Below, piece by piece: positions 1 through 64,000 of a stretch of 64,000 nt of DNA; position 1 is the stretch's first letter, and the number at the start of each line of letters is the position of its first letter. The translations under genes were made by a program, and so were the position numbers. The DNA is from a virus (Duplodnaviria > Caudoviricetes), in the IMG/VR virus record IMGVR_UViG_3300049320_000001, positions 17,655 to 81,654 of that record; one strand, written 5' to 3'. The notes under the pieces were generated by a model. It made no database searches, was not told where the DNA came from, and saw nothing but the letters and a program-made list of their open reading frames with translations.

Positions 1-2
1 TG

Positions 3-263
3 GTGGGGGCTGAGCGCACCACGAGCACTCAGGTGCTGCTCACCGCGCCCCTGGACCTGGTGGCTTCTGCCACCCACATCAGTACCAACCGGGTCTACAC
101 CAAGGCTCGGGGTGGGACGAAGGCGGGGACGGCCACGGGCATCTCTCGGGTGCTCGTCAGCGCTGGTAGCACCGTGGGTAGTTCAGCCATCGGGAGCGAC
201 AACGCCGTACTCTCGGCTGAGGGTGGCACCTCGTCGGCTACAGGGAAGGGCGGGACCTTGTGA
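3..263 (+). CDS. 3' end of an upstream Thr/Gly/Ser-rich virion protein (truncated by window edge)
   Basis: Open frame from the window edge; its TGA overlaps the GTG of the next gene (GTGA). Confidence 0.5.
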   Translation: MGAERTTSTQVLLTAPLDLVASATHISTNRVYTKARGGTKAGTATGISRVLVSAGSTVGSSAIGSDNAVLSAEGGTSSATGKGGTL

Positions 264-1018
264 CGTACGAGTTGGGCTCTGTTGTCCGCATTGGTCCTGA
301 GGTCTTCACCAACATCGATGACGATCTGGTGGATCCCGCCACTGTGACTGTGACGATCAAGAAGCCAGATGGCGCTACCGAAGACCATCCTGGTGTGCGG
401 GAGTCACTGGGCACCTTCTACTACGACTTCACCCCTGTCACCGCAGGCACGTACTACTACAAGTGGTCTACAACTGGCACGGCCTACGTGGCGCATGTCA
501 GTTCCTTCCAGGTGCAGGACACCTTTGCCAACCCTGTGTGGTCCTACTCGGGCGATCCCGTCGCTACGCCAAAGGACACCGTTCGCTTCCTCCTTGGCGA
601 TACTGATCCGTCAGACCCGTTGCTCTCAGATCAGGCCATCGCCTTTCTGATCACATCATGGGTCAACGTCTACTCCGCTGCCGCTGCTGGTGCAGAGCAG
701 ATCGCGGGTCAGTTCGCCAGGGAGGTAACAAACTCCGGTGATGGGGTGACGATTGACTTCGATCGTCTCCAGGAGAAGTACATGATCTTGGCTGGCCAGT
801 TGCGCCTGCTGGCCAAGAGAGTGGGTCGGGCTGCCTCTCCGTACGTCGGTGGGATGAGCAAGACCGAGACCGAGCGTGCCCTGATGGATGGGGACACGGA
901 GTTGACCACCTTCGGTACCGGGATGCACGACATCTACCGCGATGGTGCCTCTGGCGGCGACACAGTTGGTCAGCGCCTCAACAAGTTGAAGTCTGACCAG
1001 TCTGGTGGGGCCACATGA
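260..1018 (+). CDS. Head-to-tail adaptor with N-terminal Ig-like domain
   Basis: WSYSGDP..KDTVRFLLGDTD..PLLSD adaptor-type motif, preceded by about 90 aa of beta-rich sequence (VDPATVTVTIKKPDG..GTFYYDFT..GTYYYKW); first gene of the neck cluster. Confidence 0.7.
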   Translation: MTYELGSVVRIGPEVFTNIDDDLVDPATVTVTIKKPDGATEDHPGVRESLGTFYYDFTPVTAGTYYYKWSTTGTAYVAHVSSFQVQDTFANPVWSYSGDPVATPKDTVRFLLGDTDPSDPLLSDQAIAFLITSWVNVYSAAAAGAEQIAGQFAREVTNSGDGVTIDFDRLQEKYMILAGQLRLLAKRVGRAASPYVGGMSKTETERALMDGDTELTTFGTGMHDIYRDGASGGDTVGQRLNKLKSDQSGGAT

Positions 1019-1452
1019 TCCGCCCCGCCATGCCGTCCAAGCGGGCTCTGAGGTACGCCGACCTCAAGGCTCGGACGCAGATGACCTCCAAGGTCACGGT
1101 GTACCGGCCCTCTGCCCCGGTCTTCAACGCCACCACCGGCATGATCACCGCAACCAAGAGCCCCGATCCCATCTATGTCGGTACTGCTCGCATCCGCCCA
1201 ACGACAGGTGGTCAGCAGATCAACGTGGGAGACGGGGCTCTCGTGTTGCGTACGACCACCTTCTCCTTCCCGGAGGAGGCCACGGAGATCAGGGTGGATG
1301 ACCTGATCCACGTAGATACCTGTGCCGAGGACTCAGAGATGAACGGTCAGGAGTTCCGCATCCTGGACGTATCCATCGGGGGGATTCTGGACCCCACCAG
1401 AAAGGCCACTACCTCCCAGGTCGAGCCCAACCCCTTCCACCCACAGACATGA
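1015..1452 (+). CDS. Head-to-tail stopper (DUF6093-like)
   Basis: VTVYRP..IYVGTARI..IRVDDLIHV pattern; position after the adaptor; ATGA overlap. Confidence 0.65.
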   Translation: MIRPAMPSKRALRYADLKARTQMTSKVTVYRPSAPVFNATTGMITATKSPDPIYVGTARIRPTTGGQQINVGDGALVLRTTTFSFPEEATEIRVDDLIHVDTCAEDSEMNGQEFRILDVSIGGILDPTRKATTSQVEPNPFHPQT

Positions 1453-1510
1453 CAACCTTCGTGCCAGCAGGAGTGCGCCATCCCCCACTCCTGCTGGCTC
1501 GTGGGAGGTC

Positions 1511-2131
1511 GTGATGAGCAACGCAGACGCGACAGTAGACCTTCGGGCTCTCACTGCCGATCTTGCTGCTGCCTCAGGACAGCCCTACAAGCAGATCGCG
1601 GAGCGCCTGGTGTCCGAGGGGGCTCAGCAGGTCGAGAAGTTCGCCTATGCCTACTCGCCAGTAAGAACGGGCTTCAACAGGTCCGTGATCCTCGCTCAGG
1701 TCAACGGGATGTCAGCGGAGATCGTGGCCCACGCCCCATACTCACGGGCACTGGAGTACGGCACTGGGACCCGAGGAGAGTTCCCTGGCCGTCCCATCGT
1801 GATCCACGCCAAGCCAGGAGGGGTGCTGGCCTTCAAGGGACGTGACGGGAAGATGGTCTTCGTGAAGAAGGTGGTCAGCCCAGGTATGGCTCCTCGCCCC
1901 TTCATGCGCCCTGCCGTGGAGCGGGTTGCCTGGCCTTTGGCCACTTCCCTGGCTAACAATGCGGTGGTGATGATCACCCATGGTCCTAACCACCCTGAGT
2001 CCCTTCTCAATGCTCCTGCCTCGTCCCCCTACAACCAGACTGCCCAGGCCAAGGGGCAGGCTGAGGCTCTGGCGCTGGTGCAGACAGGTCTGCACTCCAA
2101 GCGCACCATCCAGAAGTCGTTGATCCAGTGA
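1511..2131 (+). CDS. HK97 gp10-like tail completion protein
   Basis: SPVRTG..YSRALEYGTG..HAK..PGMAPRPFMRPA motifs. Confidence 0.75.
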   Translation: MMSNADATVDLRALTADLAAASGQPYKQIAERLVSEGAQQVEKFAYAYSPVRTGFNRSVILAQVNGMSAEIVAHAPYSRALEYGTGTRGEFPGRPIVIHAKPGGVLAFKGRDGKMVFVKKVVSPGMAPRPFMRPAVERVAWPLATSLANNAVVMITHGPNHPESLLNAPASSPYNQTAQAKGQAEALALVQTGLHSKRTIQKSLIQ

Positions 2132-4211: not shown

Positions 4212-4540
4212 GGGATGATCCTCAGTTCGCTCTGGAGATGGGCTACTGCTACGACAAGGCCATTCCCCACTCGGAGTTCATGGAGTGGGATGGCGTTGAT
4301 CGTTCCAAGATCTTGGCCTATCGCATGGAAGAAGCCTCCAAGTGCCAGATGTGTGGCACCGCTCCATGGGAGTGGGAAGAGGACAGGTTCGCCTATGAGC
4401 CGGTCCAGCACATGTGCCACGGCTGCTACCTGAAAGACATTGCCTCGGAAACGGAGCAGAATACGCCAGGGGTGTCTGTCATCCTGCTGCCGTCCAGGGC
4501 AGTGACAGATGACATGCGCCAGGGAGGTAGGCAGCGGTGA
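4190..4540 (+). CDS. Tail assembly chaperone -1 frame extension (T-like)
   Basis: The -1 frame is open upstream of ATG 4238 and reads GTYQQRLRDDPQFALEMGYCYDKAIPHSEFMEW; its end overlaps the tape measure start. Confidence 0.65.
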   Translation, partial: GTYQQRLRDDPQFALEMGYCYDKAIPHSEFMEWDGVDRSKILAYRMEEASKCQMCGTAPWEWEEDRFAYEPVQHMCHGCYLKDIASETEQNTPGVSVILLPSRAVTDDMRQGGRQR

Positions 4541-7500
4541 CCACTCCCTCGGGCGGCATGGATCGCAACGTCAAGGTCAACCTCACTGCTGACGTCGATC
4601 CCTTCCAGCGCTCCATGGAAGTGGCTACCAAGAGCATCGAGAAGACGACCAACGCCGTCGTGGTGCTGGCCAAGAAGATCGATGAGTTGTGGAAGTCCGC
4701 TGGCAAGAAGTTGGAGTTGTTCGGGGCCGGTGGCCTCGCCTCTCTCGTCGCGGCTACTGAGGCTGCCTCTCGTCTGGACATCGCCTTCCGGGGGGTGAGG
4801 TCCACCGCTGCTGTCACCGGACAGGCGGTCAGGGAACTCAAGGAGGGAGCCGAAGGTCTCGCCCGAGCCCTACCGGCGAGTAACTCTCAGGTAGCCCAGT
4901 TGATGGGTCAGGTCCAAGACCTGGGAGTGCGGGGTACTGAGAACATCGTCAAGTTCACCGAGGTGGCCCTGAGGCTGGCGACAGCCACCAACACGGCCCC
5001 TGGTGAGTTGTTCTCCGGCCTCATGCAGTTGACCCGCACCATGAACGGTTCGACCCAAGACCTGGAGCGGTACTCCTCCTCCCTGGTGGCCCTGTCCAAG
5101 AACAACGGGGTGGCTGCCCAGAGCGTCATCGGCTTCTCCAACGCAATCGAGGCGGTCGCCTCCCGTGCCGGTTACACCCAGGCACAGGTGCTTGGCCTGT
5201 CTACCGCCTTCGCCAGGGCTGGTGCCGACTCTGGTGCCGGTGCGACCGCCTTCATCAAGGTCACCAATGACATCTCGGAGGCCATGCGTACTGGATCCAA
5301 GCAGTTGGACACCTACGCCAACCTGGTGGGGATGAGCCGCCAGCGCTTCCAGGCTCTCGCTCAGGACAACCCGGCTGAGGCCTTCATCAAGGTCATCGAG
5401 GCCATCAAGGACTCCGGTCCCAAGGGGATCGCCATCCTCCAGCAGTTGGGTCTGGACAGCATCCGCACCCAGCGCGCTGTGGCAGCCCTGACCTCGGGGC
5501 AGGCCAACCTCAAGCAGACCCTTGAGGAGTCCTCGGAGGCCTACCGCAAGAACGAGGCCCTGAACAAGGCTTCCAACGCTGCCTACGCCGATCTGTCTAG
5601 TGCGATGACCAAGTTCCGCACTGCCATCGCTCAGGTTGCGGAAGCCATGGGTGGCCCCTTCTTGGGAGTGGCCACCAAGATGGTGGAAGCCCTCACCAAG
5701 GTCATCAACGTCTTCAACACCCTCCCTGGCCCGGTGAAGACCACCATCGCTGTGTTGGCGGCGGTGGGTTCCTCCCTCACCATCGGTGCTGGGGCACTGA
5801 TGATCATCTCCCTGGCCGTGGTGAAGTTCGGCCTGGCTTGGCGTCTGATGTCAGGAGCCATGGCCAGCAACGTCTTCAAGGGTCTGTTCGATGGGCTCCG
5901 GGGTGCGCCGAGGGCTCTGGACAACACCTCCTCGGCCATGACCCGGCTGTACAACGCCACCTATAAGACCTCCAACGCCATGCGTGGGTCACGGATGGCA
6001 GACACCGGGCCTGGGTTGTTCGGCACGGTTATGGGGGAGTCGGGGACCTCCAACCCCATCGGTCTGCCTGGTCGCTACCTCCGCTCCCAGTTGCGTGAGG
6101 TGGGCGACACCCTTCGGCACCCACTGGACTACCGCAAGCGCAACCCTCTGGCCTACTCCGAATACTCCATCGCGGGCATGGGGGTCCGCACCCAGAAGTG
6201 GGCTGAGGGACAGGGCAGGCCCGACGAGCACCCCTTCCTCGCCAAGGCTCGTGATCTCCTCAAGGGCAACCCTGAGGAGAACCTGAGCAAGGCGCAGCAG
6301 GAGAACCTGCGTCTTCGTCAGATCGCTGATGAGAAGGCACGGGCCTACAAAGAGGGCTACGCCAAGATCAGGGAGGCGATGAGGGAGGACCCCGAGGGGT
6401 TCGACCAGCAGGCCGCTACCCACTTCGGCAAGAAGGCCTCCGGTGGGCTCACTGACAGGCACCGTGAGGTCTACGCCCAGAACGTTGCTCAGGCAGCGGC
6501 GAACGAGGCTGCCAAGGCGAAGAAGAAGACCTTCGACCAGGCTGACATCGACAGTGGGCTAGCCCCCTTCAAGGCGATGACCCTGAAGATCAAGACGATG
6601 TCTGGCGAGATGGTCGCTGACGTCGGCACCGGCACTGCCAAGATCATGGACCTGGTGACTGCGGCCTTCGCCCAGTCGGTAGCCAAGATCGTGGAGTTGG
6701 CAGCGCGGGCCAAGATGGCATTGCTGGAGGTCTCCTCTGGCTCTCCTGGAGTAGCGACCCACGGTCTTGCTGGGGCCATCTCTGGCATGAGCGGAGCCGC
6801 CACCAACGCTGGCGAGAAGATCCGTGGCGTCGTCGCTGGGATGAACACCCCCACTGCTGGGCGGGCGGGGATGAACCTCCCCCTCCCCAGCATCCTGGGA
6901 GGTTGGGGGCCACTCGCTCCTCACGATGGCACCGGCAACAAGATCATCACGCTTTCACAAGCCGGACGGGCTGAGGAGTTTGCTGCGGGCTCTACCCGGC
7001 GTACCGGTGCTCTGATGGCCAGCCTGGGGGAGAAGGCTTCTGGCCTGGCGGCTGGGTTCACTGACATCTCAGGCAAGGTCATGGGCGTGGTAGGCCCCCT
7101 TGCCCTCATCGGCACGGCTGCCTTTGCAGCAGGCTCTGCCATCCACGCCTTTGCGGAGAAGGGCAAGCAGGCTGCCCTGAAGATGGCCACCACGGGCGAG
7201 GAGTTCGCCAACGCCCTAGGCCAGAAGTTCAAGTTGCCCACCTACCAGGGTGGGGCCAACCTCGAACCCGGTGACCGCCCGAACCCCTATTCGGATGCGG
7301 AGTACGCGAAGGCGAACGCTCCTGACTTCATCAAGAAGCACAAGGAGGACATCGAGCGGTTCCAGACTCTGGGTGACCACGGTGGTGGGGTCAAGGGACA
7401 GGCGGCTTACGCCCGCATTCTGCTGGACCGGATGGTGGCCTCTAGTGGAGGCAACCTCAACTCGGATGCTCAGCAGGAGTTCCGCCAGTTGCTGATGAGC

Positions 7501-10260
7501 ACCATGGGTCGTGAGCAGGGCACCGCCCTCTCTCGGCAGTTGCTCGCCAACCAGCGTCCCGGTCCTCAGACCATTGAGTCCATCCAGGAGTTGGTCGCCG
7601 CTGGTGGGCGTGGTCGTGGGTCCCTCCTGGGCTCAGGAAGTGGTGATGCTCAGCAGGCGTATGCCGCTCTGGGCAAGGGGTCCTTGCAGATCGATGCTCA
7701 GGGGCGTCCGGTCTATGCGGCTGCCGCCCTGCTTGCTGGTGAGCGGGAAGTGCAGGACCCCAGGAACCGCATCAAGATGCAGAGTGGCGGTGAGGCAGGC
7801 GATACCGGTACCTACTACGACACTGACCCCAAGGTAAAGGCGCAGTACGCCGCTGTCCGTGAGGCACTCGCCAGGGAGTTCCAGGACAAGTACCCCGGTC
7901 AGAAGGTCAACCTCAAGAGTGCTGACAGCATCGAGGAGATCCTCAAGGCCTTCCGCGACAGCGGTGGGGTGGGGGGCAAGTTTGCCGACGACCTCGAAGC
8001 GATCTTCAACTCGATCAACTACAAGGGGGCAGACGCTGCTACTGCCCTCAAGCGGCTGGGTGTCGAACTCGCCAACGTGGCTCAGGCTGCGGACGAGGAC
8101 CCCAACTCCGCTGGCTACAAACTGCGTCACGGCTACCTGGGCCAGATCATGCAGGGCGCTGACATCGACTTCAACCTCGATGCTGACCGGCCTGCCTACC
8201 GCCTGGGTGGGATGGCCCTCAACACCTTCGCCGGTTACGACAAGGACCAGCACCAGGGTGCCTTCAACGACATCGCCACCTACACCCGGCAGTTGGCGCA
8301 CTGGATGGAGGTCCGTGCCTCCAACCCCGGCAACGGTCAGTTGCTGGACCTGGCGAACGCCAACATCGCTGCTGCTCAGGGCGGGATCAACCAGCAGCGC
8401 ACCCTGACGATGAGTGGCACCCAGCAGATCGGTGCGATCTCCAACGACATCATCACCATGGCCAACAGCCCGGACGCAGTGGAGAACACCGACTCCATCC
8501 AGGCTCAGTTGGAGAACGTCACGGGTCTGTACAACCAGCAGTTGGACCAGTTGAAGGGCTTCATCCTCCAGGTGCGTTCCCTGCGTCGTCAGGAGCGCTA
8601 CGAGGAGCAGGACCACACCAAGCAGTTGGGTCGGATGTGGCGGGACCGCAACCTCCAGATCAGGGAGATGCAGTACCAGTACGGGGAGAACATCCGTCAG
8701 TCCACCATGGCGATCTCGCAGTCCTTCGGTAACCCTGGGGCCTTCGTTCAGTCCTCCTACACCCAGAGCGCCTCGTCTGCGATGACGGGCCTGCGGGCGC
8801 AGAACGAGTACCTCCAGCGCTCCAAGAGGGCGATGGACACCTTGGGTGGGATGGGGGTGTCCAAGGACGTCATCCGCGAGATGGGTCTGGACGACCCCAA
8901 GAACTTCGTCCAGGCAGAGCGCTTCGTGAAGGACCTGGCTGGCAACCCCAAGTTGGTGAGCGCTTGGAACACGGCGATCAAGAACCGGCTCAGGATCTCT
9001 GAGGGCATCGCCACTGACCCGAACAACTCCAAGTTCGCGGAGATGAAGCGGCAGTTCGACAAGCAGGGCAAGGACGCTGCTGCTGCCTTCAAGCGCTCCC
9101 TGCACGACTTCGATGACGCCTACAAGACGGCCCAGAAGCGCCAGTTGGACAGCATCAACCAGTTGGCCGCAGACGCCATGGACGGCGTCGGCAACATTAT
9201 GAGGGCAGCCAAGGACACCGGGATCAGGAACATCCGGGCCTACGCCAACGAGATCGTTCGTCAGTCTGGCAACGTCCAGGCTGCCATCGCCGCCATGACC
9301 CGCGCTGGGGTGTTCGCTGCCAACATCGGGGGTGGTGGTCCTGGTGGTGCGACAGGTACCTATCGGAACCCCACTGCTGTCACAGGTGGTCAGCGCGGTG
9401 GTGGTTACGGTGACGTTGGCGTCACGTCCTCGATCCGCACAGGTGCTGGTGGTGCGGGCCACATCGGGGACTCCGACATGGGGAGTGTCACCCAGGGTGG
9501 GACGACCTACGTCATGCCTGGCACCGGCACGGTGTACTCAGGTGGTCGCAGCACCTACTCCGGTCGGGCCACTGACAACTTCCAGCCGTCCGAGGAGTTC
9601 ATGCGGGCACACCCCGCCAACCCCTCGTTCAACAAGAGCATCGCCCGGTCCATGATCGGTGCCTACCGGTGGAACACGACCGAGTTCAACGCTCTGGACA
9701 AGTTGTGGACCCGTGAGTCGGGCTGGAAGCAGTACGCCGACAACCCCGGCTCCTCTGCCTATGGTATTCCGCAGGCCCTTCCTGGCACCAAGATGGGCAC
9801 CTTCGGCAAGGACTGGCGCACCAACCCGGCCACGCAGATCGCTTGGGGTCTGAGTTACATCGCCAACCGGTACGGCAGTCCCTCCGCAGCCTGGTCGCAC
9901 GAGCAGAAGGTGGGCTGGTACGGCAAGGGCGGTGTTATGACGGGCCGTCAGATCATCGGTGTGGCCGAGAACGGCCCCGAGATGGTCCTGCCCCTGAACG
10001 GCGCTGGTGTGTCCTTCGTGGCCCACGTGGTGGCCCAGACCATGGCACGGAGCGGGCTGACCACTGCCGCCATGATGTCCACCCGGACAGCCGGTCATGC
10101 CGGGGCTACCTACTACGGGGACACCACCTACCACGTGGACTCCTCCACCAACTTCACCGGGGCCATCACGGTGGAGGCTTCGGACCCGAACGAGATGGCC
10201 CGCAAGTTGGCAGCCCAGAAGCGCCTCAAGGCGCTGACCCGACCCCCGAGCAGTAGGTAG
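4537..10260 (+). CDS. Tape measure protein with C-terminal lytic transglycosylase (SLT-like) domain
   Basis: 1907 aa, Ala/Gly-rich helical, N-terminal TP901-like core; C-terminal LWTRESGW..NPGSSAYGIPQALP..NPATQIAWGLSYIANRYG. Confidence 0.92.
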   Translation: MTTPSGGMDRNVKVNLTADVDPFQRSMEVATKSIEKTTNAVVVLAKKIDELWKSAGKKLELFGAGGLASLVAATEAASRLDIAFRGVRSTAAVTGQAVRELKEGAEGLARALPASNSQVAQLMGQVQDLGVRGTENIVKFTEVALRLATATNTAPGELFSGLMQLTRTMNGSTQDLERYSSSLVALSKNNGVAAQSVIGFSNAIEAVASRAGYTQAQVLGLSTAFARAGADSGAGATAFIKVTNDISEAMRTGSKQLDTYANLVGMSRQRFQALAQDNPAEAFIKVIEAIKDSGPKGIAILQQLGLDSIRTQRAVAALTSGQANLKQTLEESSEAYRKNEALNKASNAAYADLSSAMTKFRTAIAQVAEAMGGPFLGVATKMVEALTKVINVFNTLPGPVKTTIAVLAAVGSSLTIGAGALMIISLAVVKFGLAWRLMSGAMASNVFKGLFDGLRGAPRALDNTSSAMTRLYNATYKTSNAMRGSRMADTGPGLFGTVMGESGTSNPIGLPGRYLRSQLREVGDTLRHPLDYRKRNPLAYSEYSIAGMGVRTQKWAEGQGRPDEHPFLAKARDLLKGNPEENLSKAQQENLRLRQIADEKARAYKEGYAKIREAMREDPEGFDQQAATHFGKKASGGLTDRHREVYAQNVAQAAANEAAKAKKKTFDQADIDSGLAPFKAMTLKIKTMSGEMVADVGTGTAKIMDLVTAAFAQSVAKIVELAARAKMALLEVSSGSPGVATHGLAGAISGMSGAATNAGEKIRGVVAGMNTPTAGRAGMNLPLPSILGGWGPLAPHDGTGNKIITLSQAGRAEEFAAGSTRRTGALMASLGEKASGLAAGFTDISGKVMGVVGPLALIGTAAFAAGSAIHAFAEKGKQAALKMATTGEEFANALGQKFKLPTYQGGANLEPGDRPNPYSDAEYAKANAPDFIKKHKEDIERFQTLGDHGGGVKGQAAYARILLDRMVASSGGNLNSDAQQEFRQLLMSTMGREQGTALSRQLLANQRPGPQTIESIQELVAAGGRGRGSLLGSGSGDAQQAYAALGKGSLQIDAQGRPVYAAAALLAGEREVQDPRNRIKMQSGGEAGDTGTYYDTDPKVKAQYAAVREALAREFQDKYPGQKVNLKSADSIEEILKAFRDSGGVGGKFADDLEAIFNSINYKGADAATALKRLGVELANVAQAADEDPNSAGYKLRHGYLGQIMQGADIDFNLDADRPAYRLGGMALNTFAGYDKDQHQGAFNDIATYTRQLAHWMEVRASNPGNGQLLDLANANIAAAQGGINQQRTLTMSGTQQIGAISNDIITMANSPDAVENTDSIQAQLENVTGLYNQQLDQLKGFILQVRSLRRQERYEEQDHTKQLGRMWRDRNLQIREMQYQYGENIRQSTMAISQSFGNPGAFVQSSYTQSASSAMTGLRAQNEYLQRSKRAMDTLGGMGVSKDVIREMGLDDPKNFVQAERFVKDLAGNPKLVSAWNTAIKNRLRISEGIATDPNNSKFAEMKRQFDKQGKDAAAAFKRSLHDFDDAYKTAQKRQLDSINQLAADAMDGVGNIMRAAKDTGIRNIRAYANEIVRQSGNVQAAIAAMTRAGVFAANIGGGGPGGATGTYRNPTAVTGGQRGGGYGDVGVTSSIRTGAGGAGHIGDSDMGSVTQGGTTYVMPGTGTVYSGGRSTYSGRATDNFQPSEEFMRAHPANPSFNKSIARSMIGAYRWNTTEFNALDKLWTRESGWKQYADNPGSSAYGIPQALPGTKMGTFGKDWRTNPATQIAWGLSYIANRYGSPSAAWSHEQKVGWYGKGGVMTGRQIIGVAENGPEMVLPLNGAGVSFVAHVVAQTMARSGLTTAAMMSTRTAGHAGATYYGDTTYHVDSSTNFTGAITVEASDPNEMARKLAAQKRLKALTRPPSSR

Positions 10261-10262
10261 CC

Positions 10263-21756: not shown

Positions 21757-22548
21757 CTAGACGTCCTTGAACATCGCCTCCACGGCCTTCTTCTTGGCCT
21801 CCTGGGCGAGGTCGTAGGCCTTGCTGTAGCCGACCTTGCCGTCGCCCTGGACGTCACCGTCCTCGTCGCGGGTGAGGTTCTCGTCGTCCACCTGGGGCTC
21901 GGACTCCCAGACGATGCCGCCGTCGTAGTGGACCTGACCGACGTGGCCAGCCTTGACCTGAACTACATGAAGAGTGAACATGGCTTCCGTTTCTGTGAGA
22001 AGTGCTTCGAGGTCCTTGGGTGTTTCTGTGAGTAGTGCTGTGGTGTCCTTGGACTTGACGTCCTTGATCAGGTCCGTTTCGTATACCGTCTTCTTCTTGC
22101 GCTCGGTGCAGTCGCGGCACTCTGCCTTGCAGACTGGAACGCCGTACTGCGAACGCACAGGAGAGGTCGTCGCTGAGACGACGTAGGCATGACCGACGCA
22201 GGCGTAAGTGATCCCGCTGATCGTCTGGACGTTGGTCCGCTTCACCATCGTGAAGGTGTCACCGACCTTGAGGTTGAAGTCCTGTGCGGGCTTCCCCTCG
22301 TCCCTGTCCAGCCACTCGATCACCGTTCCCGGCACGAAGGCTGAGACGTACTTCCTGTCGTAGCCGGGGAACTTGGCGATGACCCTCTGGTGTGGGGGTT
22401 CATAGGTGCTGTAGGTGTCGACCACACCCTCTGCCCCACGCCATGGTGTGGTGGTACCCACCCACGGGCGATGGCCTTCCTCGATGATCCTGATCCGTTC
22501 CCCGATCTTCGGCTGGAAGTCCGGGGGTCCTGTTGTTCTGAGAACCAT
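21757..22548 (-). CDS. Hypothetical protein
   Basis: GGAGG RBS before MVLRTTG. Confidence 0.55.
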   Translation of the reverse strand: MVLRTTGPPDFQPKIGERIRIIEEGHRPWVGTTTPWRGAEGVVDTYSTYEPPHQRVIAKFPGYDRKYVSAFVPGTVIEWLDRDEGKPAQDFNLKVGDTFTMVKRTNVQTISGITYACVGHAYVVSATTSPVRSQYGVPVCKAECRDCTERKKKTVYETDLIKDVKSKDTTALLTETPKDLEALLTETEAMFTLHVVQVKAGHVGQVHYDGGIVWESEPQVDDENLTRDEDGDVQGDGKVGYSKAYDLAQEAKKKAVEAMFKDV

Positions 22549-28821: not shown

Positions 28822-29261
28822 GCGATGAAGGCCTTTCGGTTGCGGCTGTCGTAGGCGTTCTGCCACTTCTTGCCTTCGTAGGAATCAAGCCACTTCCGGT
28901 GCATGGCGTAGGCCTCGGCCTCGACCCTGACAGCCTTGATCTTCTCGGGGGTGTCAGTCCCCCAGGCCCCCTCGAAGGGCTCGGAGCGGCCGTAGCGGTC
29001 CGGTACCAGGAAGAGGCGGTTCTTCTCGGTGGCCAGCGCCTGGGCCTGGGCCAGATGCGACTCCTTCTTGGCGTACTTGAGGGAGCCCTTGTCGTGCTTC
29101 TTGATGATGCGGGTGATCTTGCGCTTGAGGCGACCCTCGAAGCCGGGAAGCACGGTGCTGATGATCTTCTGCTGGTCCCCGTAGTCGATGACCAGCCTCT
29201 TGTTGCTGCTGTACGAGGTGCGGATCTGCACCTCGTGGGTGTGCGGCTGTGCGTTGCTCAT
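28818..29261 (-). CDS. Basic hypothetical protein
   Basis: GGAG RBS; ATGA overlap with the next gene. Confidence 0.6.
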   Translation of the reverse strand: MSNAQPHTHEVQIRTSYSSNKRLVIDYGDQQKIISTVLPGFEGRLKRKITRIIKKHDKGSLKYAKKESHLAQAQALATEKNRLFLVPDRYGRSEPFEGAWGTDTPEKIKAVRVEAEAYAMHRKWLDSYEGKKWQNAYDSRNRKAFIA

Positions 29262-34746: not shown

Positions 34747-34971
34747 CTACCTACCGGCGAGATCCTTCCGCTCCTTCTGCATCTGCGGGGTGTCCGCGTC
34801 CGATGCGTTCTCGGGGATGGTCTGCTTGACGGTCTCGTAGTGGGTGTCTCCGAACGGGGCTGTCTTGCCCTTGCTCCGCTTGGCCTTGATCGTGTCGAAG
34901 GCCACCCATCCGGCCCCCAGGACGAGGGCGAAGGTGACGAGTCGAGCGATGATCAATCCGAAGGTTCGCAT
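34747..34971 (-). CDS. Single-TM membrane protein
   Basis: AAGGAG RBS; N-terminal TM helix. Confidence 0.55.
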   Translation of the reverse strand: MRTFGLIIARLVTFALVLGAGWVAFDTIKAKRSKGKTAPFGDTHYETVKQTIPENASDADTPQMQKERKDLAGR

Positions 34972-35078
34972 TGTGGGGCTCCTTTCAGTGGACAGTCTTT
35001 CTGCCTCACGTGTAAGGAGCATACCATCAAACACAGCGAAAGGCCAGTTCATCCCTCAAGAATGAACTGGCCTTTGCT

Positions 35079-35432
35079 TCACGATGCTCGAAGCCCGTGA
35101 CGTCGTTCTCGCTGATAGCAGGCGTTGCACTTGTGCTGCGCCGCGTACTTGATGCCGTGACGCTTGCACACGATGCACTGATCTTCTCCTAGAACCATGA
35201 GTCTGGTGACGGTGAGCGGCCAGTCCTTGGTGACGTCCATGGCGATTCCCGCTGTGGCTTCCTCGCTGTCCGTCCCGTTGTTGGCGACGATGTTGACGAC
35301 CCACTGGTTTGTGGCGTCCACATGTAGCACCCTGAGACCGAACAGGAGATCACCCTCACGAACTTCGGATGCCTCCAGTCTGACTTCATCCGTGTATGTG
35401 ACTACACGGTCTCTTTGGTGAACCATCTGCAC
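35079..35432 (-). CDS. Hypothetical protein with C-terminal CxxC..CxxC
   Basis: AAGGAGG RBS. Confidence 0.6.
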   Translation of the reverse strand: MQMVHQRDRVVTYTDEVRLEASEVREGDLLFGLRVLHVDATNQWVVNIVANNGTDSEEATAGIAMDVTKDWPLTVTRLMVLGEDQCIVCKRHGIKYAAQHKCNACYQRERRHGLRAS

Positions 35433-35547
35433 TGTGCTTACCTCCTTTCTAGTTAGAGATAACTGACCTCGTCAGTTTACCACGGAAATGAACAAACGAC
35501 TAGACCCCGTACCCTCACGTGGTGAGTACGGGGTCGTAGTCGATCAC

Positions 35548-35868
35548 TCAGGCGTTCGTCGTGATCTCCGGCTCGACCTGCTCCTTGGCGCGGGCGGCGA
35601 CGGAACGGACCTTCTTGGAGGCCTTGCGAGCGACCCAGCCGATGGTCTCGTCCGGCGCGACCCTGAACGCCAGGACGACGGCTCCGGCAGTGAGGACCGG
35701 CTTCATGGTGTCCTCGAACTGCTTGACCTCCTGGTCGTTCCGTGCCGCCGCCCAGAGGCGACGTGCTCGACCCGTGGTGCTCTTGACCTCCTCGGTGGCC
35801 GTCTCGGCGTCCTGCTTGATGCCGTGGACAGTGGCCTTGCCGGGGACCTTCGGCGTGTCTTCCGCCAT
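35548..35868 (-). CDS. Hypothetical protein
   Basis: AAGGAG RBS before MAEDTPKV. Confidence 0.55.
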   Translation of the reverse strand: MAEDTPKVPGKATVHGIKQDAETATEEVKSTTGRARRLWAAARNDQEVKQFEDTMKPVLTAGAVVLAFRVAPDETIGWVARKASKKVRSVAARAKEQVEPEITTNA

Positions 35869-35918
35869 TGGTGTCTCCTTCATCATCCGCTGGACCTGTT
35901 GTCCTGCGGTATGCCTCA

Positions 35919-35947
35919 AGTGTAAACCAGTAGTAGGAAATAGTCAA
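35919..35947 (-). promoter_or_regulatory. SigA-type promoter TTGACT-17-TACACT
   Basis: Read on the reverse complement just downstream of the ncRNA 3' hairpin. Confidence 0.7.
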
Positions 35948-35949
35948 GG

Positions 35950-37042
35950 CGCAACAAAGCCCCGGCTACCTTTCGTATACCGTCGCCATCACTGGGCTTA
36001 TACGGGGTCAGAAAGACCGGGGCTTTGTGCCTCTATGGGCTCGTATGGTGCAGATAAGAAACCGCAGGCATGTCTTCTTCACCAGACTTCTGAACTTTCG
36101 GAGTCCCCACACCTCTCTCGATCCTCCCGGACCTGGCCTATTCATGGGGTTGGCTCACAGCGTCTGGCCTAGACGGCGGGGTTACCCGCAGGGTTCATGT
36201 TCCTCCTACTTCGCCGTATTCCGGATCGGTGGACTTCCTGGCCTCCTACACCACGGAGGCCCCATAGAAGAGCCCCCACCCGATGACAGATGGGGGCCGG
36301 TGCGCCAGGGGAGACTCGCACTCCCAGAGAACCTTGCCATGTTGAAGTTTGGTGGACTCGTGGCTCGGAGCCAACGAGCGGGGTGACAGTCGGTGCGACG
36401 TTGTGCACTGCACCGTATGGCCGTCTCTGGCGCTGTCAGACGAGGGAGAGCCACGTTGTGTCGCTGCGGCTAACGCTCAGTCGTAGAGCGATCCTTGCCG
36501 CGCTCTCCGTGCTGACCCAGTCATCATACCGCTCCAACCCGCTACAGCGCAACACCCCCACTGCTTGGGGCAAGTAGGGGTGTTGGCTTGGCGCAGGTAC
36601 GGCTCAGGAACAGGATTCCGTCATGGCCGTCCTTCGAGCGGAGGCCCGCCCTCTTCTTAGAGACAGGAGGCTCGTTGACGCCTGAGGCAAGTCTACTGCA
36701 CTTACCTATACATAGCAAAGGACCCCCAGAGGTCTCTTTGACGTGGGGGTCCGCCGTACATCAGGCGCTGGCTTGCTGTGTGCAACCTATCGGATACAGA
36801 GAACCCTACGGTTCCCCTGCCGGTTGAGCAGGGCCAGCCTTACCGGCTGCTCGGCCTGATCTTCCAGAGTGTCTCGTGTTCGCTCTGGGTTGATCGTGTG
36901 CCCTTTGGTCCAGGACTGGGCACTGCATCCTGCAACACTTCGCGGCTGTTGAAGCACCGGCCTCCTGGAAGATGAGGTCTTAGCGTCCGAGTGGAGAGCG
37001 TGTCTCCCTGGCGACCAGGGCCAATCTCCATTCCTCTAACGC
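35950..37042 (-). ncRNA. Candidate large structured ncRNA (~1.1 kb)
   Basis: No credible CDS; at least 13 hairpins; own promoter at the 5' end and a long closing stem (ACAAAGCCCCGG 35954-65 / CCGGGGCTTTGT 36017-28) at the 3' end. Confidence 0.65.
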
Positions 37043-37048
37043 ACCACA

Positions 37049-37077
37049 AACATAACAGATACTGCCTCTATTGTCAA
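37049..37077 (-). promoter_or_regulatory. SigA-type promoter TTGACA-17-TATGTT driving the ncRNA
   Basis: Exact TTGACA, 17-nt spacer, TANNNT -10. Confidence 0.8.
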
Positions 37078-37085
37078 ACGCGAAA

Positions 37086-37107
37086 GACCCCCTATTCCTA
37101 GGGGGTC
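37086..37107. terminator. Terminator hairpin insulating the ncRNA unit from the upstream gene
   Basis: GACCCCCTA-TTCC-TAGGGGGTC, followed by a T run on the minus strand. Confidence 0.75.
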
Positions 37108-37115
37108 CTTAGCGG

Positions 37116-37487
37116 CTAGTCCTGCTCGAACAGGCTGTCCAGCAGGCTGACGGGCTTCTCGGCCTTGGCCGCAGCCATGGCCTTCTTCTCGTCGTAGTGC
37201 CGGTAGCAGTTCTTGTCCTTGCAGTCCTGCACGATGGTCCAGGGTCCGCACTTCTCGACCGGGCGGTTCTCCCAGAGGGTGATCTTGTAGTAGTGGTGCG
37301 CCGCGTTGTGGGCGTTGATGGCCTCGATGACCTGGTTGTAGGACTCCAGGGCCTTCGCCTCCTGGATGGCCCGGATTCGAGCCATCTCTGCGCGGTGCTT
37401 GCGGATCTGCTCTCGCTTCTCCGCTCGCTCCTGCTTGATCTCCTTCCGGATCTCACCGGCCGTCTCGATGACGTCCTTGAGTCCCAT
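37116..37487 (-). CDS. Hypothetical protein (coiled coil plus CxxxxC)
   Basis: AAGGAG RBS before MGLKDV; own promoter and terminator. Confidence 0.7.
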   Translation of the reverse strand: MGLKDVIETAGEIRKEIKQERAEKREQIRKHRAEMARIRAIQEAKALESYNQVIEAINAHNAAHHYYKITLWENRPVEKCGPWTIVQDCKDKNCYRHYDEKKAMAAAKAEKPVSLLDSLFEQD

Positions 37488-42926: not shown

Positions 42927-43008
42927 GGTCGAGTGGTGGAACTGGTAGACACACAGCACTCAAACTGCTGCGCCGCAAGGCGTGAGGGTTCGACTCCCTC
43001 CTCGACCA
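42927..43008 (+). tRNA. tRNA-Leu (anticodon CAA), CCA not encoded
   Basis: Acceptor GGTCGAG/CTCGACC+A, D-loop GGAACTGGTAGAC, anticodon arm CAGCA-CTCAAAC-TGCTG, long variable arm, GGTTCGACTCC T-arm. Confidence 0.92.
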
Positions 43009-43009
43009 C

Positions 43010-45718
43010 GTGAAGATCATCAGAAGCCCCAGGGGCATCGTGCTACCGAAGAGAACAGAGTCCAACTTCTTCCACGTTCACGCACACTCGCGCTACTCGT
43101 GGAACGACGCCTTGCCTGAGGTCAAGGACATGGTCTCAACCGTGTCTGCGATGGGGCACAAGGCCCTCGCACTGACAGACCACGGCAACATGGCTGGGTC
43201 GGTGCAGTTGTACAAGGAGTGCATGAAGGCTGGACTCATGCCCTTCCCTGGCACAGAGGCCTACTTCGTCAAGGACCGCCAGGACAAGACTGCGAAGCGC
43301 TTCCATCTAGGCCTCCTGGCCGTCAACGCCGATGGTTACCGTGCGCTGGCCAGGTTGTCCAGCAGATCGCACACCAGGGAGAACTTCCATCACAAGCCGT
43401 TGATCGACTGGACGGACCTTGCTGAATGGAAGGAGAACGGCTGGACGACCGGCCTTGCTCTGACGTCTGGCTGCTACTTCGGCCTGACGATCCAGACTCT
43501 CATCAGCGATGGTCCAGAGGCGGCGAAGAGCGTCCTCCAGCGGTTTGCCTGGTTGGTTCCCAACACCTTCGTGGAGTTGCAGAACCACAAGATCGATCAG
43601 AAGCCGGTCAGTGAAGACGACATCGCAGCCGCACTTGTCCACCTGGCAGACGAACTCGGCCTGCCCGTCGTCATCGCCCAGGACGCCCACTACTGCGAAG
43701 CCTCGGACAAGCCGGTGCACGAAACCCTGAAGCGCGTAGTCGCCTTCGGACCTGACACGGATGACGCGGTGTTCCCAGGTGATGGATTCCACCTGGCGGA
43801 AGCCCAGTGGGTCGCTGCCCACCACCAGGATGGGCACTGGGCTAAAGCGGAAGAGGGTTGGGGACATCTGCTGGACCTTCACGCACTGTCCATCCCCGAG
43901 TTGGACAGGTACACGTACAACATCCCGAAGGTAGCGGAGGACCCGGATGCTGTCCTGGAAGGGCGTTGTCGCCAGGCGCTCAACGAGCGAACACTTCCGA
44001 CGCCTTACGCAGATCGTCTACATAGCGAACTGTCCATCGTGCGCGACACGGGGATGGCGGGATACCTACTTCTGGTCGCTGAAGTCACGGACTGGTGTGC
44101 AGCACATGGCGTGTTCACACAGGCTCGTGGAAGCGCTAGCGGATCAGTCATCTGCTGGCTTCTCGGAATCACCCAATGTGACCCTATTCGCTACAACCTA
44201 CGGTTTGAACGGTTCATCTCCCGCGACCGCACAAAGCCTCCTGACATTGATCTGGATGTCGAGGATTCACGACGACAGGACCTCATTGACTGGCTGAAGA
44301 CCAGGTTCTCTGTGGTGCAGATCGGTACTTTCCTCACCTACGGCATCAATGACGACGAGAAGACCCCTGAGGATGACAAGGGCAAGGGCTCGCTCATCGT
44401 GGCCTTCAAGAAGGTGGCCAAGAAGAACGGGGCCTCGAAGGAGGAGTTGGACGCCATCGAGACCATCAGGGACATCCCTGATGAGTGGCGTGATCGCCTC
44501 ATGGCCCTCGCGGACCGAGGAGTGTGCAAGGCAGTAGGCACTCACGCTGGTGGCCTCATCGTCACCACCACGGACGACGAGATGGACGACCTGGTCCCCA
44601 AGATGCTCATCGTCACCAAGAACGAGGCTGGCTACCGCATTGTGAGCCAGTACACGATGGACGATGTGGAGGCGTTGGGCCTTGTCAAACTGGACGTACT
44701 TGGACTTCGTACCTTGTCCCTTCTGCGGCGCTGTACTGAACTTCTGGGAAGAGACGTCCGAGACGGGCTCGACTGGATTCCACTCGATGACACCCGGACA
44801 TTCACTACGATCCGGAACGGTGCCACGGCTGGAGTGTTCCAACTGGAGGGTGGTACAGCCCAGCGTGGTTGCCGTGAGGTGAAGGTGAGGTCCCTCAAGG
44901 ACATCATCGTCATCCAGGCTCTCTACCGTCCCGCTGTGATGAAGAGCGGCGGCAAGGACGCCTACATCGCTCGGCGTGAAGGCCGCGAGAAGGCCCCTGA
45001 GTACCACCCCTTGATCATGCGTAGCGTCAAGGAGACCTTCGGGGTGATCATCTTCCAGGAGCAGGTCATCTCGATCCTCAGGGACCTGGGCATGGACCCC
45101 GACGAACTCACTGACTTCCTCAAGGCAATCAAGGCCTCCCAGAAGGCAGACATGAAGAAGGCTGCCGTCACAATGGAGGCAGCCAGGGAGCGAGTCTGGG
45201 AGTTGTGCGAGAAGCATGGCATCGGGGCTGAGGACTACGCCCTCGTCTGGAAGGCCATCGAGGGCTTCGCGGAGTACGGCTTCAACCGCGCTCACGCCAC
45301 TGCGTACGGCATCACCGCCTACCGCTGTGCCTACCTCAAGACCCACTACCCGTTGGAGTTCGCCACTGCGTTGCTCCAGACGGCTGAGGGCACCAAGAAG
45401 GAGGCCATGTACATCTCAGCGGTGCGGCAGATGGGCATCTCCATCCGCAGGCCGCACGTCAACATCAGCGGCAAGTCCTACTCCATCGACCGCAAGGCAC
45501 GGAGCGTGAGGAAGGGCCTGGTGTCCATCCTGGGGATCGGTGAGCGCACCTCTGAGGAGTTGGAGGAGCACGCTCCCTACACCTCTGTTCAGGACATCAT
45601 CGACCGCTGCTCTGCCACCAGGGTGAACGGTGGGAAGAAATGGGCCAAGGACAAGTCCCTCAACGGCCACCTGGCCAAGTTGAAGGACATCGGAGCACTG
45701 GAGGGCCTTGATGGATGA
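43010..45718 (+). CDS. dnaE: DNA polymerase III alpha subunit (DnaE-like)
   Basis: PHP motifs HVHAHSRYS, ALTDHGN, QDAHY; RGSASGS; PDIDLD; THAGG; KLDVLGL; FAEYGFNRAHA. Confidence 0.95.
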   Translation: MKIIRSPRGIVLPKRTESNFFHVHAHSRYSWNDALPEVKDMVSTVSAMGHKALALTDHGNMAGSVQLYKECMKAGLMPFPGTEAYFVKDRQDKTAKRFHLGLLAVNADGYRALARLSSRSHTRENFHHKPLIDWTDLAEWKENGWTTGLALTSGCYFGLTIQTLISDGPEAAKSVLQRFAWLVPNTFVELQNHKIDQKPVSEDDIAAALVHLADELGLPVVIAQDAHYCEASDKPVHETLKRVVAFGPDTDDAVFPGDGFHLAEAQWVAAHHQDGHWAKAEEGWGHLLDLHALSIPELDRYTYNIPKVAEDPDAVLEGRCRQALNERTLPTPYADRLHSELSIVRDTGMAGYLLLVAEVTDWCAAHGVFTQARGSASGSVICWLLGITQCDPIRYNLRFERFISRDRTKPPDIDLDVEDSRRQDLIDWLKTRFSVVQIGTFLTYGINDDEKTPEDDKGKGSLIVAFKKVAKKNGASKEELDAIETIRDIPDEWRDRLMALADRGVCKAVGTHAGGLIVTTTDDEMDDLVPKMLIVTKNEAGYRIVSQYTMDDVEALGLVKLDVLGLRTLSLLRRCTELLGRDVRDGLDWIPLDDTRTFTTIRNGATAGVFQLEGGTAQRGCREVKVRSLKDIIVIQALYRPAVMKSGGKDAYIARREGREKAPEYHPLIMRSVKETFGVIIFQEQVISILRDLGMDPDELTDFLKAIKASQKADMKKAAVTMEAARERVWELCEKHGIGAEDYALVWKAIEGFAEYGFNRAHATAYGITAYRCAYLKTHYPLEFATALLQTAEGTKKEAMYISAVRQMGISIRRPHVNISGKSYSIDRKARSVRKGLVSILGIGERTSEELEEHAPYTSVQDIIDRCSATRVNGGKKWAKDKSLNGHLAKLKDIGALEGLDG

Positions 45719-49631: not shown

Positions 49632-49977
49632 GTATCCCGAGTGGCATGAGCATGGTGTGTGTCGGGATCATTCACAGGAGACCTTCTTCGGTGGGGAGGA
49701 GCAACCAGGCAAGAAGCGTCATCGCCCAACGATGACCATGAGCGAGGTACAGCGGGCCAAGGCCATCTGCAACACCTGTCCAGTGATGCTGGAGTGCCAG
49801 ACCTACGCCCTGGAGAACCACGAGGAGTTCGGGGTCTGGGGAGGAACCACCAAGCGTGACCGTGACCGCTGGTGGAAGGAGCATGGTGTGAGTCACATGG
49901 ACGCTTACACCCATGATGAAGGGTTTGACACAGTTGCTTCGATGGAAGACGATGATCACGCAGCAGCAGCGGGGTAG
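49621..49977 (+). CDS. whiB: WhiB-family Fe-S transcription factor
   Basis: W....VC..TFF..AKAICNTCPV..EC..YAL..GVWGGTT. Confidence 0.92.
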   Translation: MTHEYPEWHEHGVCRDHSQETFFGGEEQPGKKRHRPTMTMSEVQRAKAICNTCPVMLECQTYALENHEEFGVWGGTTKRDRDRWWKEHGVSHMDAYTHDEGFDTVASMEDDDHAAAAG

Positions 49978-62553: not shown

Positions 62554-62606
62554 GTCCTAAACACGACAATAGGCCACCAGATTGATATCTGATGACCTAT
62601 TTGCCG

Positions 62607-62741
62607 CTATCGAGACGCTCTACCGATGGCCACGAGGGCGACCGCCACTCCTACTGCCGCTGCCTGCTTGACGGGCAACTTTCGTGGGGTCTTGGTCACG
62701 ACCGTCGTGGTGACGGTGCGTGTCTGGATCTGCTTGGGCAT
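62607..62741 (-). CDS. 44-aa membrane peptide (MPKQIQTRTV..VGVAVALVAIGRASR)
   Basis: AAGGAGG RBS; promoter motif at 62766-62786; below the track cut-off. Confidence 0.55.
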   Translation of the reverse strand: MPKQIQTRTVTTTVVTKTPRKLPVKQAAAVGVAVALVAIGRASR

Positions 62742-62765
62742 CTGCCCTCCTTTCTCCATGCCTCA

Positions 62766-62786
62766 ACTGTATCACACCCTCTACAC
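62766..62786 (-). promoter_or_regulatory. Phage-specific extended -10 promoter motif (copy)
   Basis: Minus strand GTGTAGAGGGTGTGATACAGT. Confidence 0.6.
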
Positions 62787-62841
62787 CCTGTACAGAGTGT
62801 CGTAGGGGACAACAGGTAGGCAGAAAGCGATGATGGAGGCT

Positions 62842-64000
62842 ATGACGACCCCCATGGGCATGGTGGATTCGTTTGGCCCTGATGGGACCATGCGAGGCGC
62901 TGCCGTAGACAAGGCGATGATCGAACTCGGTCAGTCCGGTCTGCGGCGTTGGGGTGGTTACGTCGATGAGGAGTTCCTGCCTCAACTGCGTGGCCGTAAG
63001 TCCATCCAGGTCTTCAAGGAGATGTCGGAGAACGACCCCATGGTGGGGTCGCTGCTCTGGGCCATCGACAAGTTGCTCAGGCAGGTCACCTGGCGGGTGG
63101 ACAGTTCCTCCTCGAACCCCGAGGACCAGTTGGCTGCTCAGTTTGTCGAAGAGTGCATGGACGACATGTCCCACACCTGGGACGACCTGATCAGCGAGAT
63201 CCTCTCCATGCTGGTCTATGGGTGGTCCTGGCACGAGGTGGTCTACAAGCGCCGGGGTGGGGACGTCCGCAACCCTGAGTTGAAGAGCAAGTACGCGGAC
63301 GGCATGATCGGCTGGCGCAAGATGCCCATCCGCTCCCAGGAGACCCTCTTGGAGTGGGAGTTTGACTCCGATGGTGGCATCCAGTCCATGGTGCAGTTGG
63401 CCCCACCGGACTACAAGAAGGCCGTCATCCCGATCCAGAAGAGCCTGCTGTTCCGCACGGCCCTTCACAAGAACAACCCTGAGGGTCGCTCCATCCTGCG
63501 TACGGCCTACCGGCCCTGGTACTTCAAGAAGCGCATCGAGGAGATCGAGGCCATCGGCATCGAGCGTGACCTCGCTGGCCTCCCGGTTGCCAAGATCCCC
63601 GCTGAGTTCCTCTCTGCTGCTCCAGGAACCCTGGAGTACAAGACCGCCGAGGCCTTCAAGAAGATGGTCCGCTCGGTCAAGCGCGATGAGATGGAAGGCG
63701 TCGTCATGCCCCAGGCATACGACGAAGAGACCAAGATGCCGCTGTACGAGTTCGAGTTGCTGTCCTCTGGTGGTGGCTCCAACTTCAACACCGACCAGAT
63801 CATCCAGCGGTACGAGCAGCGCATCCTGATGACGGTCCTGGCGGACTTCATTCTCGTGGGCCACCAGGACACCGGCTCCTACGCCCTGCACACCGACAAG
63901 ACCGGGATCTTCCGGTCCTCCCTCAACTCCTTCGCACAGGCCATCGCAGACGTGCTCAACCGGCACGAGATCCCGCGCCTCTTCGCCCTCAACGGGTGGA
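62842..64000 (+). CDS. Portal protein (DUF935/Mu gp29-like), truncated by window end
   Basis: Hand translation ELGQSGLRRWGGYVDEEFLPQLRG..EMSENDPMVGSLL..YGWSWHEVVYK..NPEGRSILR..IGIERDLAGLP; follows terL; GGAGG RBS. Confidence 0.88.
   Translation, partial: MTTPMGMVDSFGPDGTMRGAAVDKAMIELGQSGLRRWGGYVDEEFLPQLRGRKSIQVFKEMSENDPMVGSLLWAIDKLLRQVTWRVDSSSSNPEDQLAAQFVEECMDDMSHTWDDLISEILSMLVYGWSWHEVVYKRRGGDVRNPELKSKYADGMIGWRKMPIRSQETLLEWEFDSDGGIQSMVQLAPPDYKKAVIPIQKSLLFRTALHKNNPEGRSILRTAYRPWYFKKRIEEIEAIGIERDLAGLPVAKIPAEFLSAAPGTLEYKTAEAFKKMVRSVKRDEMEGVVMPQAYDEETKMPLYEFELLSSGGGSNFNTDQIIQRYEQRILMTVLADFILVGHQDTGSYALHTDKTGIFRSSLNSFAQAIADVLNRHEIPRLFALNGW

Follow-up and report, generated by a model that had tools for sequence, protein, structure and literature searches.

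Why should a bacteriophage carry a single transfer RNA (tRNA) gene, and why one that reads a minor leucine codon? This question is raised by a 64,000-nucleotide stretch of phage DNA (hereafter the window), which comprises bases 17655-81654 of one 81,654-bp virus contig (IMG/VR record IMGVR_UViG_3300049320_000001) with a guanine-cytosine (GC) content of 61.4%. The contig is rated 100% complete and linear and most likely stems from a soil metagenome; the associated sequencing runs are all of soil metagenome DNA, one of them probably its source, with no RNA among them. Its tRNA gene lies immediately upstream of a DNA polymerase gene, in a genome from which the word AGCT is missing altogether. Here we ask whether the lost word and the tRNA are connected. 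The two genes at the centre of the question are:

42927..43009, plus strand: tRNA-Leu, anticodon CAA, class II (ARAGORN; Rfam RF00005, 54.9 bits)
43010..45718, plus strand: DnaE-type DNA polymerase III alpha gene (Pfam domains PHP, DNA_pol3_alpha, finger and HHH_6)

AGCT does not occur once in the whole genome. Word counts were compared with 100 shuffled genomes, in which all protein sequences and the global codon usage were preserved, and with a maximal-order Markov model; the gene set consisted of 75 genes called by a self-trained codon model and covers 79% of the genome. The shuffles predict 222±10.5 copies of AGCT (minimum 192) and the Markov model predicts 302, with the sub-words AGC and GCT both being common. 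An earlier note, made from the letters of the window alone, had claimed that, in the parts scanned for it, AGCT, CTGCAG and CTCGAG are absent and GTCGAC is found once, at 22417. Direct counts in the window agree (0, 0, 0 and 1, respectively), and the codon-aware and Markov expectations place AGCT far below, and not near, the number that chance would produce. The one exception is:

22417..22422, no strand assigned: sole surviving GTCGAC (direct count)

The purge is much broader than the earlier note had reported, with a dozen-odd further six-base palindromes nearly lost. In the whole genome, the observed and expected counts are 0/32.7 for CTGCAG, 0/29.9 for CTCGAG and 1/35.5 for GTCGAC. Among other GC-rich six-base palindromes they are 0/47 for GCCGGC, 1/45 for GGCGCC, 2/34 for CCGCGG, 1/31 for CCCGGG, 4/36 for CGGCCG and 0/21 for GGGCCC, and further six-base words follow the same trend (CGCGCG 1/21, TCGCGA 2/20, GATATC 1/16, TGCGCA 0/13, ACGCGT 2/13, TCATGA 0/9, CGATCG 7/28). 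At least 14 six-base palindromes have a ratio of observed to expected copies of 0.15 or lower, and about 15 are reduced to 0-4 copies. This is a word-specific purge and not a general loss of palindromes: GACGTC (43/42), CCATGG (52/47), TGATCA (31/27), CGTACG (27/29), GATC (524/490) and GGCC (597/634) occur as expected, and CATG, ACGT and AGATCT are likewise near expectation. Degenerate and interrupted sites are depleted no further than the strict palindromes contained in them require, and CCWGG, GGWCC, GANTC, BglI, BstEII and similar sites have normal counts. We considered degenerate, interrupted and Type IIS sites as extra targets and rejected them, as the strict palindromes inside them account for their depletion.

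The avoidance operates on the DNA itself, in all three reading frames and in non-coding sequence. Alanine after an NNA codon is never GCT (0 of 196, versus 32% elsewhere), serine before a TNN codon is never AGC (0 of 220, versus 24% elsewhere), and AGCT is absent outside the called genes, where about 65 copies are expected.

In the remaining frame, the ban falls on leucine. Leucine after an NAG codon must be TTG, because NAG-CTN would contain the forbidden AGCT, and all 108 leucines in this position are indeed TTG, with none of them CTN, versus 121 of 1446 (8.4%) in other contexts. TTG use thus depends on the preceding codon, and the purge forces it arithmetically. A second escape route is also used, in which the preceding codon is changed: 63 of 260 NAA codons precede leucine, so that Lys-Leu, Gln-Leu and Glu-Leu pairs are written as 108 NAG-TTG and 63 NAA-CTN. 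The six-base words leave comparable traces. As the earlier note had described, Leu-Gln and Leu-Glu pairs are rewritten with replacement codons: Leu-Gln is never CTG-CAG but CTC-CAG (43), TTG-CAG (12) or CTG-CAA (5), and Leu-Glu is never CTC-GAG but CTG-GAG (36), CTT-GAG (12), CTA-GAG (6) or CTC-GAA (5).

Inflation of a codon was measured as its overall share relative to its share at positions where no synonymous choice could make AGCT. TTG is the most inflated codon of all, rising 1.72-fold from 8.6% to 14.7% of leucines, followed by CAA, AAA and GAA at 1.2-1.3-fold. The AGCT ban fully accounts for 108 of the 229 TTG codons, and about 16 more stand where a purged six-base word would arise with CTG or CTC. 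Forced codons are used most densely in the following gene:

4537..10260, plus strand: tape measure gene (1907 residues; tblastn matches to tape measure proteins)

Of its 31 TTG codons, 25 follow an NAG codon, in keeping with the more than 20 that had been noticed before. In the capsid gene, TTG stands at the 3 positions where it is forced and at none of the 19 where the codon is free; TTG therefore looks like a disfavoured codon that is used under constraint. Per 1000 codons, TTG occurs 10.8 times in the structural arm, 7.1 times in the leftward arm and 13.4 times in the replication arm.

The tRNA gene is intact and canonical. It has A73 as discriminator, A37 and a long variable arm, CCA is not encoded, and its minimum-energy fold is a cloverleaf with the long variable arm. 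A CAA anticodon decodes UUG only. No second tRNA was found by ARAGORN in the window or in the remaining 17.6 kb of the contig, and an Rfam scan of the window returned no RNA family besides tRNA. With the whole genome scanned, the claim that the phage has one tRNA and that this tRNA reads UUG holds. The first GTG in frame with the polymerase begins one base after the end of the tRNA. Polymerase homologues align from approximately residue 18-20 on, and the true start of the protein may lie further downstream.

On balance, we favour an explanation in which restriction drove the purge, the purge forced TTG, and the tRNA probably eases the translation of this codon. Host Type II enzymes would select out all AGCT (an AluI-type site) and nearly all copies of about 15 six-base palindromes. 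Under an AGCT ban in every frame, leucine after lysine, glutamine or glutamate would come to be written as NAG-TTG or NAA-CTN. This would raise the share of TTG and place it in late genes of high expression in which it is otherwise avoided. Encoded right before the polymerase gene, the tRNA-Leu(CAA) would probably ease translation of these forced codons. The parts of this explanation differ in strength. It appears very probable to us that Type II restriction enzymes of the host selected for the purge, while the proposal that the demand for TTG created by the purge is a main reason for keeping the tRNA is tentative and may well prove wrong. Of the chain drawn in the earlier note, from purge through codon demand to tRNA, restriction avoidance is well supported, the forcing of TTG is borne out, and a tRNA owed to this demand is only plausible.

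Restriction avoidance is the best fit to the purge because the purge has removed classic Type II palindromes, because it singles out particular words and operates on the DNA whatever the reading frame, because the sets of lost words differ between phages and switch along the phylogenetic tree, and because the phage appears virulent and no methylase was found. It is reasonable to read the missing words as a fingerprint of the restriction repertoire of the host. AluI cuts AGCT and was isolated from Arthrobacter luteus, now Cellulosimicrobium cellulans. The recognition word of AluI-type systems is thus the purged word, and the source of the enzyme is an actinobacterium, as is the likely host of the phage. 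A link between such a system and this phage is suggested by the missing word alone.

Two genes point to the nature of the host:

49642..49866 (genome 67296-67520), plus strand: WhiB-family gene (PF02467, 74.2 bits)
29271..29903, minus strand: Rpf-type transglycosylase-like protein (PF06737, E = 2.5e-8)

Judged by their families, both would be markers of an actinobacterial host, and among control genomes Corynebacterium was the sole match for PF02467. Capsid, DnaB helicase and primase are also encoded. A genome-wide family search gave no match to tyrosine or serine integrases (PF00589, PF00239), which does not by itself prove their absence, and the same holds for the C5 and N4/N6 DNA methyltransferase families (PF00145, PF01555), for which the search was equally without a match. 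The phage is probably virulent and its host is probably a high-GC actinobacterium. Among cultured phages, its polymerase is closest to those of Gordonia phage GMA6 and Brevibacterium phage Cantare (38-40% identity), and its capsid is ~40% identical to the capsids of Arthrobacter phages and of several proteobacterial phages. A megablast search with 8 kb of sequence returned no near-identical record from the phage collection. Searches for the host itself returned no relative of the Rpf protein in bacterial genomes and zero exact matches for a 20-nucleotide pattern of the tRNA anticodon arm in 185,579 species genomes. In sequence, the tRNA is similar to generic leucine tRNAs of phages and bacteria, with 87% identity to those of Klebsiella T4-like phages, and is therefore uninformative on the host.

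Whether purge and tRNA go together can be addressed in relatives. These were found via DnaE as a marker, whose homologues (47-79% identical) are abundant in metagenomes; the tape measure protein as a probe gave distant and uninformative matches only. As a single query against IMG/VR, DnaE returned no match, and alignment-based scans mostly gave distant or bacterial DnaE, so that the nearest relatives came from exact-protein look-ups. A quick IQ-TREE phylogeny was built from 38 DnaE sequences, and five whole IMG/VR genomes (G001-G005) were added to the comparison. The tree places the window with good support as (L091,(L090,(L086,(window,(L083,L089))))). Its five closest neighbours have the following properties (AGCT as observed/expected):

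L083: AGCT 0/36; CAA tRNA of 74 nucleotides with a class I body, upstream of DnaE (L083:317-390; Rfam 48.7 bits)
L086: AGCT 0/45; CAA tRNA of 77 nucleotides with a class I body, upstream of DnaE (L086:448-524; Rfam 49.3 bits)
L089: AGCT 17/41; UAA tRNA, class II, upstream of DnaE (Rfam 40.9 bits); 53% GC
L090: AGCT 40/71; no tRNA in 10.5 kb; TTR after NAG 12%, without context effect
L091: AGCT 0/67; no tRNA within ±10 kb; 53% GC

The CAA tRNAs of L083 and L086 occupy the same locus as that of the window, on a body that is unlike its class II scaffold. As anticodon and locus are the same and the scaffold is different, the CAA anticodon appears to have been kept through a change of scaffold. Both tRNAs have A73 and no long variable arm, a structure that one would not expect in a leucine tRNA from bacteria. 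In L089, 12 of 14 leucines after NAG are still TTG (region L089:1-7698), which looks like the fossil of an earlier, since relaxed purge. The T-loop of its UAA tRNA has a G in place of the expected U55.

Beyond this group, AGCT has been lost completely in further branches of the tree (L096; L012; L101, L006 and L007; L100; L106; L008 and L102). The five whole genomes add:

G001: complete, 58 kb; AGCT 0/238; TTG 20% of leucines; only tRNA is Ser(GCU) (G001:C1:56810-56900)
G002: 79% complete; AGCT 0/159, GATC 3/164, TTAA 0/29; no tRNA
G003: 64% GC; GTCGAC (0/36) the only lost word; TTG 5-6% of leucines; no tRNA
G004: 66% GC; TTG 5-6% of leucines; no tRNA
G005: 60% GC; AGCT not purged; TTG 22% of leucines; no tRNA

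In G003 and G004, AGCT is not, or only partly, purged. The tRNA-Ser(GCU) of G001 reads AGC and AGU, and AGC is one of the codons that an AGCT purge constrains. AGCT is still present in four cultured actinophages (GMA6, Cantare, Ottawa and Wheelbite), which have lost GC-rich six-base words in subsets that vary from one phage to the next. The AGCT purge is found in several separate lineages of the DnaE tree, with purged and unpurged relatives interleaved. Relatives and actinophages with different lost subsets are what host-specific restriction would produce.

How far does this support the tRNA link? Three observations give it real but limited support. The lone anticodon, out of some 45 possible ones, matches the most inflated codon. 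A CAA anticodon appears to have been kept on two unrelated bodies at one locus in AGCT-free relatives. And TTG is avoided in the capsid gene where it is free to be.

The alternative that survives best accepts restriction avoidance as the cause of the purge and holds that the tRNA is unrelated to the purge. The tRNA would be an inherited feature of the clade that was kept for general reasons, such as a phage GC content below that of the host, added translation capacity or the replacement of host tRNAs cut by a defence nuclease, and its match to the codon would be a coincidence. We regard this as a realistic possibility that falls short of being the likelier outcome, and several observations speak for it and against a purge-driven tRNA. 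The tRNA-bearing genomes (the window, L083, L086 and L089) form one clade, and the association of purge and tRNA is therefore one evolutionary event. Across lineages, this single clade is set against the AGCT-free lineages without a leucine tRNA, of which only G001 is represented by a complete genome: G001 lacks a leucine tRNA, G002 lacks any tRNA in the 79% that is present, and no leucine tRNA was found in the examined sequence of L091, L096, L012, L101, L006, L007, L100, L106, L008 and L102. L089 is nested in the AGCT-free clade and has regained 17 copies of AGCT, and it has kept a leucine tRNA (UAA) despite the relaxed purge, with TTG at 29% of leucines. tRNA-Met and tRNA-Trp are present in near relatives too; no choice among synonymous codons can explain these, and they thus count against a tRNA content driven by the purge. 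G005 reaches 22% TTG without any purge of AGCT, and among relatives the purge is a poorer guide to TTG use than are GC content and lineage. In the window's own genome, 102 of the 229 TTG codons (~45%) are unforced, so that the purge can at most be a co-driver of the tRNA.

A coincidental match has difficulties of its own. It has to accept that the sole tRNA happens to read the single codon that the purge inflates most, that AGCT-free relatives share a CAA anticodon at one locus across two unrelated scaffolds, and that the capsid gene shuns free TTG, which makes the forced TTGs real suboptimal codons. As a proxy for codon supply, the TTG share of 14.7% compares with 5-6% in unpurged high-GC relatives and 22% in the relative of 60% GC, these being relatives and not the host. 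The comparison of relatives with and without the tRNA that the earlier note had called for thus speaks in both directions: the CAA tRNA is kept in AGCT-free L083 and L086, and the complete, AGCT-free G001 does without a leucine tRNA. If the purge-driven demand does underlie the tRNA, the wider rule would be that restriction avoidance selects a phage tRNA(CAA) in high-GC hosts with little capacity to decode UUG, and that the anticodon outlives replacement of the tRNA body. We put this rule forward as a conjecture, and a rather doubtful one.

A second alternative concerns the cause of the purge. AGCT could have been lost for a reason other than Type II restriction, such as a phage nuclease that cuts AGCT, another defence that reads it, or a pressure akin to that in pandoraviruses. 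In clade-A pandoraviruses, AGCT has been lost wholly, as has GCGC in ~350-kb enterobacterial phages (Poirot et al. 2019, bioRxiv 10.1101/712018), and in pandoraviruses restriction avoidance was tested as the explanation and rejected, leaving an elimination without demonstrable restriction-modification cause (bioRxiv 10.1101/712018). The parallel is close, as the same word falls to zero against hundreds expected and its loss follows phylogeny. Moreover, no cognate host enzyme has been identified here, the majority of the phage proteins have no known family, and AGCT loss recurs in relatives from soil, freshwater and marine samples. However, the present genome is that of a bacteriophage, probably of an actinobacterial host, and it has lost AGCT alongside many classic six-base palindromes, in sets that vary between phages, and this is the usual mark left by the avoidance of Type II sites (PMC6286503). 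Ordinary restriction avoidance is therefore sufficient here. No restriction-endonuclease family was detected among the 30 phage proteins scanned, most of which have no known family, and interleaved purged and unpurged relatives fit changing hosts better than a fixed phage gene. We consider a cause other than Type II restriction improbable.

That the pattern is an artefact, whether of assembly from metagenome data, of codon bias or of base composition, is effectively refuted: the contig is indeed a metagenome assembly, and runs of A and T are depleted too, which indicates a strong general compositional constraint, but each of the 100 protein- and codon-preserving shuffles contains at least 192 copies of a word that is absent here, AGC and GCT are common enough for a Markov expectation in the hundreds, the same purge is present in independently assembled relatives from other samples, and the codon-pair adjustments can be produced by evolution only.

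With host restriction as the favoured cause, the phage joins a known class. Restriction-site avoidance has long been described in virulent double-stranded DNA phages (Sharp 1986; Karlin 1992; Rocha 2001; codon-usage review PMC8410138); it affects the short palindromes that orthodox Type II enzymes recognise and is strongest in non-temperate phages that lack methylases of their own (Rusinov et al. 2018, PMC6286503). Like these phages, the present one has eliminated, or nearly eliminated, palindromes by synonymous change, and no methylase of its own was found. Unlike typical cases, a four-base word is wholly absent from 82 kb, and ~15 six-base words are lost or nearly lost with it. In our literature search, we did not find the consequence of avoidance for one codon and its matching tRNA described, and the review that was located does not mention tRNAs.

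Phage tRNAs are reportedly matched to codons that the phage uses more than its host does, a codon-compensation model ascribed to Bailly-Bechet et al. in 2007. The tRNA-Leu(CAA) resembles such compensating tRNAs in that it reads an otherwise minor codon that is used relatively often, late genes included. It differs from them in that, for 47% of the TTG codons, a non-translational cause can be named, a forbidden DNA word, and in that the comparison made here is with relatives and not with the host.

The phage is therefore an extreme new example of a known avoidance strategy, with a putative and testable extension to the tRNA. It provides a clean and quantified case in which the pressure to escape a defence acting on DNA words passes into codon-pair choice (108/108), and this pressure may reach as far as tRNA content. 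If this were true across independent lineages, it would constitute a new, non-translational cause for the carriage of tRNAs by phages, a question that has long been debated, and if it were general, the tRNA set of a phage would partly record its history of restriction escape. If the tRNA link fails, the finding remains an extreme but ordinary case of restriction-site avoidance. In either case, the list of erased words is a testable prediction of the restriction systems of the actinobacterial host and could help to pair uncultured soil phages with their hosts.

Several minor observations accompany the comparison. Some relatives harbour selfish elements among their replication genes. In L086, a gene for an HNH endonuclease lies between the tRNA and the polymerase (L086:525-950). 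The DnaB helicases of L090 and L092 (L090:1022-3376, L092:3770-6001; 743-784 residues) have LAGLIDADG domains and probably contain inteins.

Runs of A and T are scarce throughout the genome of the window. AAAA, TTTT, AATT and TTAA are each absent and ATAT is found once, where the codon-aware shuffles predict 48 for AAAA and TTTT together, 19 for AATT, 31 for TTAA and 32 for ATAT. No A/T run is longer than 5 bases. The higher-GC relatives G003 (64%) and G004 (66%) contain about twice as many A/T runs of at least 4 bases, and these reach 9-11 bases. Possible causes are restriction of TTAA- or AATT-type sites, avoidance of spurious promoters and avoidance of AT-binding silencers.

Most of the surviving GC-rich six-base sites are clustered:

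28987..37457, no strand assigned: cluster of surviving GC-rich six-base sites (CGGCCG three times, CCCGGG, CCGCGG, CGCGCG, TCGCGA)

Within it, TCGCGA, CGGCCG, CCGCGG and CGCGCG all fall into 33198-33612 (~420 bp). The segment 33000-33999 is slightly GC-richer, and an open reading frame on the minus strand at 33246-33980 was rejected by the codon model. The patch at 33198-33612 may be a recent acquisition in which the purge is not yet complete.

Two non-palindromic words are also rare when counted together with their complements: CACCTGC (2 versus 19.5 expected; window sites 40527 and 57900) and AGCGTA (3 versus 33 expected; window sites 3832, 53183 and 56892). They could be Type IIS or other asymmetric targets, or could reflect chance among the many words tested. 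Conversely, some palindromes one outer base away from purged words are over-represented (observed/expected: TGGCCA 55/37, AGCGCT 39/26, AGGCCT 41/30, CACGTG 32/23), and CCWGG is found 499 times versus 412 expected. The excess of TGGCCA, AGCGCT, AGGCCT and CACGTG may be a spill-over from the rewriting of purged words.

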